Of a stretch of DNA of 40,722 bases, positions 4,242-40,722 are shown in pieces; positions within the stretch are counted from its first letter, which is position 1; each line of letters begins with the position of its first letter. This stretch comes from a virus (taxonomy: Duplodnaviria > Caudoviricetes), in IMG/VR virus record IMGVR_UViG_3300032320_001415, positions 1 to 40,722 of that record; one strand, given 5' to 3'. Made by a program: the position numbers and the translations under genes. The notes under the pieces were generated by a model. The model was not told where the DNA came from and searched no databases. It saw only the letters and a program-made list of their open reading frames with translations.

Positions 4242-4666
4242 CTCGACCGCGTGCAGGATATGTCGGATTCACGCGGACGCCGACCTCGACGGCGGCGTCT
4301 GGAATCTGGACGCTACGAGAGGCGGAGGCGAGCAAGCGTCAGGCAGCGTGGCCAGACACGATTCTCCCCGTTGCGGCTACGCCAGCATTTTCAGTGAGCG
4401 GCGCTGGTACTGCCGCCGCAAACGGCACGTACTGCGAGAGCGGCACTCTCAACGGGCGACCGCGATATACCAAGGGCAGCTACACAATAGAGTATACGTC
4501 CGATTGGATGATCGACGGCGAGGGCAACGGGCCGAACTGGCTGATCCGGTTTGGCAGCACTGATTTGTATTACGCATCCGTGACAGCCGCGACCCCGCCG
4601 CTCAGTGGCTGGGGAGTCTATTTGGGCGGCTCGCCCGCACCAACGCTGTCCTCCACCACCTGCTAG
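4238..4666 (+). CDS. Putative virion appendage protein
   Basis: Coupled ORF; N-terminal ASGIWTL..WP motif followed by a G/T/S/Y-rich beta domain. Confidence 0.55.
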   Translation: MTRPRAGYVGFTRTPTSTAASGIWTLREAEASKRQAAWPDTILPVAATPAFSVSGAGTAAANGTYCESGTLNGRPRYTKGSYTIEYTSDWMIDGEGNGPNWLIRFGSTDLYYASVTAATPPLSGWGVYLGGSPAPTLSSTTC

Positions 4667-32987: not shown

Positions 32988-33917
32988 TCACGCCGCCGGG
33001 TTTTCCGGCGGTTTGTCGGAGAGGTCGAGCGTGGGCAGGGACTCCACGCTGGTCCGTTCCGGCGGGCAGATTGCCGGATCTACATAGAGGTCTGCGAGCC
33101 TCGGGTTGCTGTGATCCAGCAGGGCGGTCGCTGCGGCCTTTCCGTGCCGCAGAGCGGTGTAGCTGGCTGCCGCACGCCGAAGCCCGTGAAAGCCCCTGTA
33201 GGTGACGGCAGCCTTGTTGCAGAGCATTTTGAGCGACGTCCAGATGGAGTCGCGTGACATCCTGTCCCAGTGCCACACAAGGTCATCCGGCTGCCCCTTT
33301 CGCGTCCGCAACATCTTCGCCAAGTCAGGCGTGATCTCACGCACGATGTCGCGGGTGTGTCCCTTGCGGGTATCCGCCAAGAAGACGATGCGGCAGTTGT
33401 CGAGGTCGACTTCGGACCACCTGACCGACAGCAGGGCGGAAATCCGCTCGGCTGTGCAGTACGCCGTGTAGATCAGCGTTGGCCACCACCAGGCTGCCGG
33501 TTGCCCGCCGACATACCGCGGGCGGCGGCGAGCGGTCACGATGAGCTTGGCGACGTCCTCGGCTGTATAGGCCCGTGGAATGCGTTGTGGCACACGCATA
33601 CGGGCAAGGGCCGGGAACTCTGCCGCCAGCTTCTTGCGGGCTGCGAAATTCCACAACGCCACCAGCTGCGTCCGGTCCTTCAGCACGCTGGCTGGCTTGG
33701 GAATCCGTCCCCTGTGCGGCGTCTTTGCCCGCCATCGCAGGAACTTGCTGACCACCATGTCGTCGAGGTCAGTGGCCGTGGGAACCTTGGCAACGTCTCC
33801 CGACTCAATCCGCAAGAAATCACGGAACCTGTCGAGCGTGCAGGTGTATAGCTCAATCGTCCGGTCGGACAGGTTATTGAGCACGGCGTATCGGTCGAGA
33901 ATCTCGTACAGCGTCAT
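32988..33917 (-). CDS. int: Tyrosine integrase/recombinase
   Basis: ERISALL.VRWSEVD (R), K, FHGLRR (HxxR), LDHS, LY catalytic Tyr; ATG 33917. Confidence 0.9.
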   Translation of the reverse strand: MTLYEILDRYAVLNNLSDRTIELYTCTLDRFRDFLRIESGDVAKVPTATDLDDMVVSKFLRWRAKTPHRGRIPKPASVLKDRTQLVALWNFAARKKLAAEFPALARMRVPQRIPRAYTAEDVAKLIVTARRRPRYVGGQPAAWWWPTLIYTAYCTAERISALLSVRWSEVDLDNCRIVFLADTRKGHTRDIVREITPDLAKMLRTRKGQPDDLVWHWDRMSRDSIWTSLKMLCNKAAVTYRGFHGLRRAAASYTALRHGKAAATALLDHSNPRLADLYVDPAICPPERTSVESLPTLDLSDKPPENPAA

Positions 33918-34107
33918 CGGAGCACCTCGTCGCGGGTGCATCCATGCGACCAATCCGACGCCGACCTACGACGTCAGATTCCATGCCGATGCCACCACAG
34001 ACAGGCATACTATACACCCGTACAACTCCCATGCCCTCCGCTGATACCTGGCTCGGCTGCCCCCATCCTACGCGGGGCGCTGGGGCGGTTTCCAGCAATG
34101 GGTGCGT

Positions 34108-36023: not shown

Positions 36024-36051
36024 TTGACCATCACCTGTACGGGCGTATAGT
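36024..36051 (+). promoter_or_regulatory. Sigma70-like promoter for the recombination/replication operon
   Basis: TTGACC-N16-TATAGT upstream of RBS AAGGAG. Confidence 0.65.
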
Positions 36052-36081
36052 TGCGCCCTGCACACGAAGGAGATCACCCAC

Positions 36082-36306
36082 ATGGATTCGCACAGATCGG
36101 AATACCTCGCCGCCGTCGAGGGAATGGCCGAGCACACGATGCCGTCGGCCATGCACCGCACCTACGCCGTCGGCGACTACGTCAGCGGCGTCAGCTGCGG
36201 CAAACCCTGGTCGGGGCGCATCGATTGGTTTTTCGACAACGGCGACGCCTGCGTCGACGTCGGCGGGGCGTGGCTGTCGGTGCCCGTGAGAGACATCACG
36301 TTTTGA
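36082..36306 (+). CDS. Small SH3-like hypothetical protein
   Basis: RBS AAGGAG; VGDYVSG...WSGRI. Confidence 0.65.
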   Translation: MDSHRSEYLAAVEGMAEHTMPSAMHRTYAVGDYVSGVSCGKPWSGRIDWFFDNGDACVDVGGAWLSVPVRDITF

Positions 36307-36443
36307 GAGGACCGCCTGCCGTCGGAGACGGCTTGCGGAAGGAGTGCGGTGGAACCGCAGCAGCAGGGACGCAGCAACACCCGGCGAGCAGGACGCGGAG
36401 CCGGGATTTCATCAACGGACGGAAACGCAGAAAGGACGCGGAC

Positions 36444-37328
36444 ATGACGGTACAGATCAGAAAGGCGAAGCGGTCGGCAACAAAGCTGCGGCTGCTTCTC
36501 ACGGGACCGAGCGGCAGCGGAAAGACCTGGGGAGCCCTGCAAATCGCCAAGGGGCTCGGCGGCAAGACTGTGGTCATCGACACGGAGGAAGGCAGTAGCG
36601 ATCTCTACGACACGCTGCACGACTTCGACGTCATCGACCTCAAGCCTCCGTTCACGCCAGAGCGGTACATCGAGGCGATCACTGGGGCCGAAGACGCTGG
36701 CTACGACGTCATCGTCGTCGACAGCGTCACGCACTGCTGGAGTGGCCCTGGCGGATGCTTGGAGTTGCTGGAAGAGATCGCAAAGGCTCAGTTCCGCGGC
36801 AACACGTGGTCGGCGTTCTCGGTCATCACGCCTCGGTGGCGGGCATTTGTCGACAAGCTGTTGCGGTCGCCCGCCCACATCATCTGCTCGGGCCGGTCAA
36901 AGACCGAGACGGCCCAGGTGGACGACCACGGCAAGAAGAAGGTCGCCAAGCTCGGCATGAAGCTCGAGGCCCGCGACGGCCTGGAGTTTGAATTCACGTG
37001 CGTGCTCGACCTCATTCACGACGGGCACTACGCGACGGTGAGCAAGGACCGCACGGGCCTGTTCGCCGGCGATCCCAAGCCCATCACGCCAGAGACCGGC
37101 AAGCGTATCGCGGAGTGGCTGGCCGGCGGCAAGCCCGTCGAGGATCAGGCGGTGATCGACGGTGCTCGCAAGGCGATCAGCGACGCAGCCAGCGTCGAGA
37201 CGCTCGACAGATTGAACCAGCGGATAGCCCAGCGGTTGACCGAGGGGCGGATCTCGCAGGCGACGGCTGAATCGCTGGCGGCAGCGATCGCGGACAAGAG
37301 GAACGGACTGACCATCACCACAGCTTGA
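36444..37328 (+). CDS. AAA_24/Sak4-like recombination ATPase
   Basis: GPSGSGKT, VIDTE, VVDSVTH, EFEFT, KDRT. Confidence 0.88.
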   Translation: MTVQIRKAKRSATKLRLLLTGPSGSGKTWGALQIAKGLGGKTVVIDTEEGSSDLYDTLHDFDVIDLKPPFTPERYIEAITGAEDAGYDVIVVDSVTHCWSGPGGCLELLEEIAKAQFRGNTWSAFSVITPRWRAFVDKLLRSPAHIICSGRSKTETAQVDDHGKKKVAKLGMKLEARDGLEFEFTCVLDLIHDGHYATVSKDRTGLFAGDPKPITPETGKRIAEWLAGGKPVEDQAVIDGARKAISDAASVETLDRLNQRIAQRLTEGRISQATAESLAAAIADKRNGLTITTA

Positions 37329-37339
37329 AAGGATGCAGC

Positions 37340-37831
37340 ATGGATTGGGACATGAACATCGACGAGGACTTCCCGCAGGACGTCCACAAGCAGATGCCCG
37401 AGGAGCGTGAGATCGTGCCGGTCGGCACGCATCTGGCGACGATCAAGCGTGCCGAGGAAGGGCCGAATCAGTGGAAGACGAGCGACACGAATCCCGACGG
37501 CATCTGCCTCAAGGTGCGGCTGGCCATCGGCAACCACAAGTTCATCTTCCACGACCTGCCCAAGCACGTGCCGTGGCTGGCGAAGCAGCTCGCAGACGCT
37601 CTCGGCATCCAGCCGCAGGGCAACACGCTGCGTCTCGTGCCGGCTGACGTCGAGGGCCGCGAGGTCCGCGTCGAGGTTGAGCACTACACGAGCAAGGCGG
37701 GCCGCGTGTCGGCGGTCGTGAAGCGGTACTTGCCGGCTGCCTCCGCATCGTCGGTGCCGCCGAAGACGAAGCCACAGCCTCGCGTTCGCGAGGAGCTGAA
37801 GGTGGCTGGCTCCGATGACATCCCCTTTTGA
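37340..37831 (+). CDS. Phage single-stranded DNA-binding protein-like
   Basis: Follows the Sak4-like gene; acidic C-terminal tail DDIPF. Confidence 0.7.
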   Translation: MDWDMNIDEDFPQDVHKQMPEEREIVPVGTHLATIKRAEEGPNQWKTSDTNPDGICLKVRLAIGNHKFIFHDLPKHVPWLAKQLADALGIQPQGNTLRLVPADVEGREVRVEVEHYTSKAGRVSAVVKRYLPAASASSVPPKTKPQPRVREELKVAGSDDIPF

Positions 37832-38236: not shown

Positions 38237-38551
38237 GTGGCACTCACGACAACGCAGGACGCGATGGATTCGCTGCCGCTCTTTGCTGCGGCAAGGCGAA
38301 CAGATCCGCAGACGTCGCACCAGGCGGCACGCTCGGCGCGATCGTTCGCGGGCGAGCATCACCAGGCGATCCTCGAGGCGCTGGCGCACGGACCTGCGGG
38401 AGCCAGCGGCATCGCGGCGCGGTGCGGGCTGCTGGCGCATCAGGTCAACAAGCGGATCGGCGAGCTTGCACGGGCTGGCAGGATCGTTGAGACGGGCAGG
38501 ACGGTGCGTAGTGCCAGTGGACGGGGCGAGAGGGAGTGGAGGTGTGCGTGA
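38237..38551 (+). CDS. Winged-helix DNA-binding protein
   Basis: ARRTDPQTSHQAA; ILEAL...IA...KRIGEL...G.I..TG...SGR..W. Confidence 0.7.
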   Translation: MALTTTQDAMDSLPLFAAARRTDPQTSHQAARSARSFAGEHHQAILEALAHGPAGASGIAARCGLLAHQVNKRIGELARAGRIVETGRTVRSASGRGEREWRCA

Positions 38552-38955
38552 GACCGCATGAAATCGAGTACTCGCGATACATCGCGAGCCACCGCTGGGC
38601 TTGCAAGCGCGACGCCCGAAAGGAAATCGACGGCCATAGGTGCCAGACGTGTATGCACGACGGCACGCTGTGGAGGCTTGAGGTTCACCACAAGACATAT
38701 GAACGATTCACGGACGAGGACGTTGATCGCGACTTGATCACCCTCTGCGTCCAGTGTCACGAAGCCGTGACGTGTGTAATCCGGTCCCGTCGGTATGACG
38801 GACAGCCGGTGCAAGTGTGTTTTGTTTCGGATGGTTCCATTTCACGAAAGGATGTGTCATATGGCATGGACGACATTGACCTACAAGATCACAGGCGACG
38901 CCCCGCTGATCATGCACAACGGGGATCTCGCAAACCCGTTGAGCAAGGCCGCTAA
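38548..38955 (+). CDS. HNH endonuclease
   Basis: Y..YI.S..W; RCQTC; LEVHHKTY; DLITLCVQCH. Confidence 0.85.
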   Translation: MRPHEIEYSRYIASHRWACKRDARKEIDGHRCQTCMHDGTLWRLEVHHKTYERFTDEDVDRDLITLCVQCHEAVTCVIRSRRYDGQPVQVCFVSDGSISRKDVSYGMDDIDLQDHRRRPADHAQRGSRKPVEQGR

Positions 38956-39487
38956 GGCGCTGAAGCAGGTGACTTCCAAGAAGAAAAAGACGGATGCCGA
39001 TTTCGAGCGAATGGCTGAGATTGAGTTCAAGGCCGGACTTTACATCGACGAAGATCGCGGCCCTGTGATCCCTGGCGAGAACATTGAGGCCACGCTCTAC
39101 AACGCTGCCAAGATCACGAAGGAAGGCAAGATCGCCAAGTCGGCCTGTTTCGTTCCGAATGCGGCGGTGCTCCAGTACGACGGCCCGCGCGACGCAGACG
39201 GGCTGTGGAACGAAGAGCGGTTCCGCAACTGCGTCGGCGTGAAGGTTGGCATGAGCCGCGTGATGCGGACTCGTCCGATCTTTCAGGATTGGTCTGCGAT
39301 CTTGGAGGTCGAGTTTGAGGACTCGGTCGTGAACGAAGAGCAGGTCGATCGCTGGGTGCATGCGGCCGGCACGCAGGTCGGTCTCTGCGATTGGCGGCCC
39401 AGGTGCGGACGGTTCACCGCCGAGAAGGTGGCCAACACGACGCCGAAGAAGCGGAAGGCGGCACCGGAGGCTATCGGCGCGGAGTGA
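38861..39487 (+). CDS. Stand-alone Cas7/RAMP-like RNA-binding protein
   Basis: RAMP-like layout: ITGDAPLIMH (beta1), PVIPGENI, RTRPIF..W, Gly-rich loop AG..VGLCDWRP..GRF; RBS AAAGGA. Confidence 0.75.
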   Translation: MAWTTLTYKITGDAPLIMHNGDLANPLSKAAKALKQVTSKKKKTDADFERMAEIEFKAGLYIDEDRGPVIPGENIEATLYNAAKITKEGKIAKSACFVPNAAVLQYDGPRDADGLWNEERFRNCVGVKVGMSRVMRTRPIFQDWSAILEVEFEDSVVNEEQVDRWVHAAGTQVGLCDWRPRCGRFTAEKVANTTPKKRKAAPEAIGAE

Positions 39488-40430
39488 TCATAACGAACTG
39501 AGGCGTGGTCGCGTCTGGTCAGTTGAGTTCTGTTCGGGTCGGGCACGGCGGGTTGGTGCTGGGCCGTGCATGTCAACCAACCACTCTCGTGATAGGCACG
39601 GAAGCATCTTCGACGGTGCGGAGTGGGGTCGGTTTAGGTCCGGTCTGGCGAGTTGTGTCAGGGTCTGTCCAGTTGAGTCTGTGCCGGTCAAGGCAACCTC
39701 TCTCATGGTCGGCATGATGCGTCTTCGATGGCGCGGAGAGGGATGCACTTAGTTAATGCTGGTTCATGTCGGTCAAGGGATGTTCGGTCCTGTTCCGGTG
39801 GGTTCTTTTTTGGCAAGTTGGCAATGTCAGGCAAATCATGGGAACCACCTGCACGGTCGGCGTGGTCGCGGCTTCGATGCTGCGAGGTGGGATGTGCTGC
39901 GGTTCGTTCAGGAACGGCACGGCAGTGCAAGGTGTGATTTTTTCCGCTACGGCGAGTCGTGGAACCACCATCGTGTTGGCACGGAGGCCGATCGACGCGG
40001 CCGTGGTGGGATGAACTAAGGCTCGTTTGGCTGAGGCTGTGCAATGCTCGGCAGTGTTAGTTGCGGCAGTAAAGGTCTGGTTATGGATGGTCTTAACTTG
40101 GCAAACAAACCACACCCGTGCAGGCACGGTTCCCGATCGACGCGGGAGGTGTGGGATGGATCGTGTTTCGGCAGCACATGTTTCGTCAGGCCGAGCCGTG
40201 TCATGTTCCGGCAGGACTTGGAACCAAGCTCGTGCAGGCACGGGGCCGGATCAACGCCGGCGGCTTGGGATCGCGGCTAGCTGGTGTTTGTTACGGCACT
40301 GCAAGGCGGTGCGTGGCATGGCTTGGTCGGGTTTGAACCGCCATCACGGTCGGCGTGGTGAGGCTTCGACGCCTCGTGGCGGGATGCGCACATGGATGGA
40401 GCGGCTGGTTGCCGTGCCATGCGAGGATTT
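39488..40430 (+). ncRNA. Non-coding guide-like array: seven structured tRNA-like repeats alternating with 5-nt-periodic GGY+NN tracts
   Basis: Repeats start at 39579, 39695, 39843, 39963, 40108, 40222 and 40336 with co-varying stems; pentamer period in between; no credible ORF. Confidence 0.8.
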
Positions 40431-40433
40431 CAA

Positions 40434-40722
40434 ATGAGTTCTTGGTTGAAAATGCGACATGACCTTGCAGACGATCCAGCGGTAATCCGACTGGCATCGC
40501 TTTGCGGGCTTGAGGAGGATGCCGTCATCGGCAAGCTCTTCCGGCTCTGGTCGTGGGCTGATCGTCACACGCGAGACGGGAATGTCGAAGGTGTCGATCT
40601 GGCCTGGGTTGATCGTTTGGCTCGGCGTGATGGGTACGGTGCCGCCCTTGTCAGGGTGGGCTGGCTTGTCGAAACAGGCGAGGGGCTGAGTTTCCCGCGT
40701 TTCGACAGGCATTGCAGCGACA
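40434..40722 (+). CDS. Phage replication initiator/organizer N-terminus (runs off window; not in ORF track)
   Basis: RBS GAGGA; MSSWLKMRHDLADDPAVIRLA...VIGKLFRLWSWAD...VGWL...FPRFDRH. Confidence 0.75.
   Translation, partial: MSSWLKMRHDLADDPAVIRLASLCGLEEDAVIGKLFRLWSWADRHTRDGNVEGVDLAWVDRLARRDGYGAALVRVGWLVETGEGLSFPRFDRHCSD

Follow-up and report, generated by a model that had tools for sequence, protein, structure and literature searches.

A phage VIPR array whose first guide tract decodes to the catalytic box of tyrosine integrases

What is the first tract of the pentamer array carried by this phage directed against, and does the array belong to a known system? The window, that is, the whole stretch of 40,722 nucleotides analysed here, is a complete-looking 40.7 kb virus record, which places the locus in a viral genome. 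A first-pass annotation had read the tract as a gapped NNx code aimed at a conserved integrase motif of rival temperate phages or mobile elements, and had considered it insensitive to synonymous escape; taken overall, that interpretation is partly supported by our analysis. The locus is, with near certainty, a VIPR system, the CRISPR-like gene silencer described in 2026 (bioRxiv 10.64898/2026.04.26.720920), and, judging from its sequence, tract 1 probably directs Vipr against the integrases of rival prophages, satellites or islands (a probability of about 0.7).

The gene immediately upstream of the array, vipr (38861..39487, plus strand), codes for a 208-aa protein with a predicted RAMP fold, which gave no match in a Pfam search. 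Its residues 6-190 align with the Vipr of Escherichia phage SUSP1 (PDB 36pp, E 4.6e-32), and in this alignment H17, K33, K82, G87 and K88 of SUSP1 are kept as H19, K35, K84, G89 and K90, while R138, D177, W178 and R179 are kept at the same numbers; these are the residues tied to GGY binding and strand clamping (bioRxiv 10.64898/2026.04.26.720927). The predicted structure (pLDDT 89.6) has type III Csm complexes or their subunits as its top Foldseek matches, and the protein has the build of a minimal RAMP with G-loop and thumb. Two genes that may be vap-type accessory genes adjoin it: an HNH endonuclease gene (38536..38955, plus strand; PF01844, E 4e-5), which overlaps the start of vipr and whose own start codon is uncertain, and a winged-helix/HTH-like gene further upstream (38237..38551, plus strand; phrog_1123, with a DprA_WH match at E 2.6e-4 that falls short of the cut-off). 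The locus is flanked by an AAA_24 gene (36051-37831) and by the beginning of a gene for replication initiation (40434-40722), in what is by position the early replication region, and a search of the locus for a sigma-70 promoter or a terminator found none that was convincing. IMG/VR contains 12 related vipr loci, in 10 of which Vipr is 85-97% identical to the one in the window. No host could be assigned from cluster names, Atlas taxa, tRNA scans or searches of phages and plasmids; it may be a planctomycete.

Downstream of vipr, all on the plus strand, we recognized seven clear pentamer tracts with a 50-nt repeat after each. Tract 1 (39492..39576) is followed by tract 2 (39627..39694) and by tracts 3-7 at about 39752-39842, 39901-39962, 40020-40107, 40160-40221 and 40275-40335; repeat 1 (39579..39629) is followed by repeats 2-7 at 39695-39744, 39843-39893, 39963-40012, 40108-40157, 40222-40271 and 40336-40385. 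A possible tract 8 (40383..40432), degenerate and with a pyrimidine at position 3 in only 7 of its 11 units, is not followed by a repeat. The array holds seven or eight tracts of 12-18 units. The tracts are tandem GGY/NN pentamers with hypervariable NN and a relaxed scaffold, and each clear tract is followed by a conserved structured element. This repeat is predicted to fold into a three-way junction, with double-sided changes in 11 of the 14 predicted pairs (24 of 43 repeats from the window and its relatives). It found no match at threshold in Rfam, where the only hit was a sub-threshold snoRNA match (E 0.19), and the idea of a hammerhead-interspersed array was rejected, as a CUGANGA or GAAA core is absent from the array and no Rfam ribozyme matched it. 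The element of repeat 1 may be the 3′ tail of guide 1 or a separator. By eye, four relatives (L003-L006) have a pentamer tract at the position of tract 8; in them this final tract lacks a following repeat, which suggests that the element may separate tracts or mark a site of processing and not act as a tail.

In relatives with 85-97% identical Vipr the repeats are kept and the tracts are mostly different. Each array position retains its own repeat variant across phages (the window and L001-L008) while the intervening tracts turn over. Tract 3 is partly common to L002.3 and L003.2, and tract 6 to L006.7, so some guides persist across phages. The first tract of L003 (3632-3731) starts like that of the window and decodes to (D/E)(D/E)V(D/E)L(D/E)(D/E)G, which resembles an integrase 'DVDL..G' with a run of only 6 that lies within the shuffle range. 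Several other arrays differ in layout: in L007 and L009 an ORF of about 100 codons appears to be inserted mid-array between two guide units (about 4300-4630), and in the more distant L011 (3570-3900; Vipr 46% identity) and L012 (3560-3950; 37% identity) pentamer tracts are separated by short hairpins and by a repeated A/T-rich spacer, respectively.

Tract 1 tiles as 17 pentamers, each of three scaffold bases followed by NN. A pyrimidine occupies scaffold position 3 in all 17, a regularity reached by none of 100,000 base shuffles in any phase; 7 of the 17 scaffold triplets are strict GGY, the others being GTY, TGC, CGT, AAC or ACT. Read as codon positions 1 and 2, NN units 1-11 decode to (E/D)DVRLHDLRRT. 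The NN series given in the first-pass annotation was exact as written, apart from a 17th unit, AA, which runs into the repeat, and its decode, (D/E)(D/E)VRL(H/Q)(D/E)LRRTGG(W/C)R(I/M), was likewise correct. The gapped code that it proposed turns out to be the published one-nucleotide-skip rule of VIPR (bioRxiv 10.64898/2026.04.26.720920). Contigs from three further runs (X2, X3 and X4) carry tract 1 with identical NN bases, the listed difference being confined to scaffold base 39572. Tract 1 is a genuine guide tract of a known system.

To what does this guide correspond in sequenced genomes? We scanned with units 1-11, allowing at most two mismatches, and used the reversed pattern as a control. 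In the class of a Phenylobacterium genome, 15 matches were found in 8 of 151 genomes, six of them in a single genome, against one control match; each of the 15 lies in frame within a PF00589 gene, in most cases one that also has an arm-binding domain. A second set, 121 genomes from the phylum of G007, gave four matches against no control match, two of them integrases and two chance-like. Taking both sets together (272 genomes), 17 of the 19 matches fall in frame within PF00589 integrases, as against one control match. The ORFs of these 17 (the two chance-like matches left out) all score over the PF00589 cut-off and have the in-frame HxxR box that is the predicted target; most of the genomic matches read HDLRH, not HDLRR. 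In IMG/VR the 9-unit pattern of the first-pass annotation gave three matches, two of them in frame in integrases, with 12 and 10 of 16 units matched, and one antisense to another gene. The in-frame enrichment over controls that had been predicted is therefore found in genomes and is weak in IMG/VR, where two of three matches stand against none for four control patterns. Candidate targets of other tracts were rejected in the same collection: units 5-13 of tract 2 gave six matches, all off-frame in one tail-gene family, and tract 3 gave two, off-frame in one locus. Units 1-9 of tract 2 and one shuffle of tract 1, the latter as a control, gave no match in IMG/VR.

We also searched 1.84 billion representatives with a profile of the box, seeded with two matching proteins. 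All 11 units are compatible in at least 16 of the best 150 proteins, many of the representatives being fragments, and the compatible ones mostly read EDVRLHDLRRT(V/L)GSWL. At the top of this search stood P0383, a 4223-aa repeat protein with 17 LKDHRRTLG stretches, which by appearance is no integrase. On a panel of 149 integrase proteins the longest compatible run of tract 1 is 11 units, whereas no run exceeded 8 in 3000 shuffles or 7 in the 47 other tracts examined, a test that is partly circular because the panel was picked with the motif known. As none of these 47 tracts has a run above 7 on the panel, the guide is not one that the clade shares. Units 13-15 fit a second subfamily, HDLRRT(C/H/A)GCR, for which all 34 IMG/VR matches are in frame; this pattern was chosen after the fact, and its genes reach only 26 of 32 bases.

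Two viral contigs with matching integrases deserve description. L095 (18.8 kb), which has the best viral match, carries two integrases, a tRNA-Arg, an excisionase-like HTH gene, a small terminase, a major head gene and a tail chaperone; the integrase lies within about 7 kb of those phage-type genes, and the element looks satellite-like. In L097 (203-6988) an arm-type integrase with EDVRLHDLRRTVGSW is followed by a small terminase, a large terminase and a portal gene within about 1.6 kb, and TTA and AGA codons lower its match to the guide to 10 of 16 units.

Match counts of this kind establish that the motif exists and is common, and do not by themselves show that the guide aims at it. For that reason we estimated the look-elsewhere effect. 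Under the NN frequencies of the remaining 47 tracts, the probability that a random tract would fit this 11-mer is 3.4e-12; over 96 trials (8 tracts in 2 orientations, with 6 windows each) and a library assumed to hold 4.4e6 to 1e8 conserved 11-mers, the expectation is E = 0.0014 to 0.03.

Beyond unit 11 the correspondence weakens. None of 141 box proteins has Gly at unit 12, and units 12-16 are fully matched by no integrase in the collections searched. Units 2-13 (12 units) gave no match in metagenomes, where a related pattern gave 17, of which 5 are integrases and 12 chance-like; 15 units with at most three mismatches gave none in 401 genomes. Units 3-13 (11 units) had three matches in GTDB, all off-frame or antisense in unrelated genes (TonB-receptor-like, molybdopterin-binding-like and flavin-transferase-like, as named by reading their translations), and at these 22 bases the composition of tract 1 yields many more chance matches than uniform bases would. 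At best, integrase genes agree with the guide in 27 of 32 bases (L071 and L095), which is 84% of NN under the one-nucleotide-skip rule as against a published threshold of 80%. An off-frame chance match, L063, reaches the same value (27/32, 13/16 units), so the published threshold is passed and is undiscriminating in collections this large. The poorly matched units of tract 1 adjoin the repeat, which may be a tail or a separator, as noted above; SUSP1 filaments appear to engage first at the repeat end (10.64898/2026.04.26.720927).

The phage has a tyrosine integrase of its own (32988..33953, minus strand; PF00589), whose box reads FHGLRRA and which is not a target: it matches tract 1 in only 17 of the 32 read bases. 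The 9-unit pattern has no match in the window with up to three mismatches, and over 274 kb of the window and its relatives the best match of tract 1 is 22 of 32 bases, within the range of shuffles (20-23). The array thus shows no self-targeting, which bears out the earlier proposal that the guide is aimed at some other element. The further claim, that this target is a conserved motif of rival elements, holds as far as the aim is non-self; it is weakened by the mismatch of units 12-16 and by the lack of a specific target element. As a separate candidate, self or sibling targeting by the whole set of 48 tracts over the same 274 kb was rejected, since only L007.3 (19/24) beat its 8 shuffles, by 2; this set excludes 13 parser hits (coding DNA or untailed) and the tracts of L009 and L010, which duplicate those of L007.

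How far would such a guide resist synonymous change? In 63 IMG/VR loci that encode RLHDLRRT (units 4-11), modal identity is 0.90 at the first codon position, 1.00 at the second and 0.56 at the third, so skipping position 3 removes most of the synonymous variation. Arg or Leu, however, make up 5 of the 11 motif units, and their codons also vary at position 1: L097 and L098 each lose two units in this way. The description of the code as insensitive to synonymous escape was therefore overstated, and 'largely insensitive' is the wording that we would retain.

Tract 2 bears on this point. Six of its units equal units 2-7 of tract 1 in 11 of 12 NN bases, while the scaffold agrees in only 8 of 18 (background 9.2); sharing of 11 of 12 NN bases was reached in 7 of 1000 array shuffles. 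In the seven other tract pairs with at least 11 NN bases in common, 12-17 of the 18 scaffold bases agree as well, and these pairs look orthologous. NN identity in the absence of scaffold identity points to selection on the NN bases. The single NN difference turns the Arg unit CG into AG, the other class of arginine codons, and after the six units tract 2 leaves the integrase box. Tract 2 itself varies between runs: an NN change at 39656 is found in X2, X3 and X4, and a contig of X2 has a variant that differs in two scaffold bases and two NN bases (39655 and 39670).

Several other explanations have to be weighed against the one that we prefer. The most serious is that the vrRNA is real and its integrase decode coincidental, the true target being unsampled and an Arg/Leu-rich, GC-rich series happening to resemble a very common motif. 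The match was, after all, found after the fact, no target rises above the chance ceiling of the large collections, the GC-rich composition raises the number of chance matches (the three in GTDB), and the four patterns derived from other tracts or from a shuffle have no in-frame target of their own. We nevertheless regard coincidence as unlikely, given that eleven contiguous units fall on a catalytic box at an estimated E of 0.001-0.03, that tract 2 repeats the core of the motif on another scaffold, and that recombinases are a published class of target (10.64898/2026.10.15.759431).

Guide 1 may instead have once been aimed at one specific integrase, its repeat-proximal end having since decayed or recombined, so that it would now be inactive and tract 2 an old duplicate. 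The mismatch of units 12-16, the fast turnover of tracts between close relatives, the first tract of L003, which has the same first units and scaffold and then differs, and the resemblance of tract 2 to tract 1 minus six central units would all suit such a history. The constancy of the NN bases of tract 1 in three other runs (possibly one recent lineage) and the selection on NN implied by the comparison of tracts 1 and 2 speak against it, and we hold it to be improbable. Lower still, as a very slim chance, we rate a host-directed or decoy guide that binds the integrases of many resident islands and alters their expression or titrates Vipr, rather than acting on one rival virus. The matches are indeed mostly to chromosomal arm-type integrases, up to six per genome, the exact pattern occurs in few IMG/VR phages (two of three matches), and guides to multicopy REP sites have been published; those decoys are solo vrRNAs on satellites without vipr (10.64898/2026.10.15.759431), whereas tract 1 heads a complete vipr array.

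We thus favour a guide against the integrases of competing elements. Units 1-11 would pair with the first two positions of each codon across the HxxR box of arm-type tyrosine integrases. By analogy with the published SUSP1 and P. fulva work, the tract would be transcribed, each pentamer would be coated by one Vipr subunit, and NN would pair with the target while every third target base is skipped. Transcription of the integrase gene would then be blocked, and a resident satellite, prophage or island could neither excise nor integrate during infection, with the phage's own integrase spared; units 12-16 would be drifting, or would match an integrase outside the collections searched. A more ambitious version, which we offer tentatively and consider doubtful, is that guide 1 is a broad family guide on the catalytic-box consensus of thousands of arm-type integrases, with mismatch tolerance in its last five units, and that guide 2 is a back-up for the AGR class of arginine codons (as opposed to CGN) that closes first-position synonymous escape. 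By comparing tracts 1 and 2, one can ask directly whether VIPR arrays evolve so as to cover codons with six-fold degeneracy.

Prophages and islands integrate most commonly by means of tyrosine integrases, and the present case would extend recombinase targeting by VIPR from one E. coli serine-recombinase satellite to the catalytic box of these enzymes. Were an 11-unit match sufficient for repression, a single short guide could immobilise many elements that are unrelated to one another. The surprise is limited by the fact that the system, its code and its wobble logic are already in print: the one-base-skip rule, wobble alignment and action against rival phages are established (10.64898/2026.04.26.720920, 10.64898/2026.04.26.720927, 10.64898/2026.10.15.759431, 10.64898/2026.10.21.760802), as is wobble-aligned targeting of a recombinase active site, and the mechanism proposed in the first-pass annotation is to that extent known. 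The words 'integrase' and 'recombinase' are absent from the main text of the first VIPR paper (10.64898/2026.04.26.720920), and a search of the literature from 2026 for VIPR together with tyrosine recombinases found no relevant paper, while the supplements of the preprints (target tables in Data S3) may list such targets.

Compared with the systems described so far, the locus is closest to the type II VIPR of SUSP1 and of a P. fulva prophage (10.64898/2026.04.26.720920, 10.64898/2026.04.26.720927), with which it shares a homologous Vipr, an array of pentamer tracts that lies downstream of vipr, structured elements that follow the tracts, carriage by a phage and the lack of a self target. It differs from them in its looser scaffold (7 of 17 triplets strict GGY), its 7-8 tracts of 12-18 units, its HNH and winged-helix genes upstream, and a predicted three-way-junction repeat where SUSP1 has a pseudoknot tail. 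The conserved structured RNA between tracts recalls the vrRNA arrays of VIPR types I and V that are interspersed with hammerheads (legend of fig. S19, 10.64898/2026.04.26.720920); it differs in having neither a hammerhead core nor an Rfam ribozyme match. On the side of the target, the box (E/D)DVRLHDLR(R/H)T of arm-type tyrosine integrases (PF00589 with PF13356) matches units 1-11, and after the Thr these proteins continue as V/L-G-S-W-L, F-A-S or C-G-C-R-L, none as G-G-(C/W)-R-(I/M). The nearest functional parallel is vrRNA4 of SUSP1 (10.64898/2026.10.15.759431), which, like tract 1, is a wobble-register guide on the active-site codons of a recombinase of a competing element, in that case the F5 satellite. 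There, within one satellite family, the footprint covers six units beside the catalytic serine, and it was tested experimentally; that of tract 1, as recognized by sequence alone, would cover 11 units of the HxxR box in tyrosine integrases from at least two phyla.
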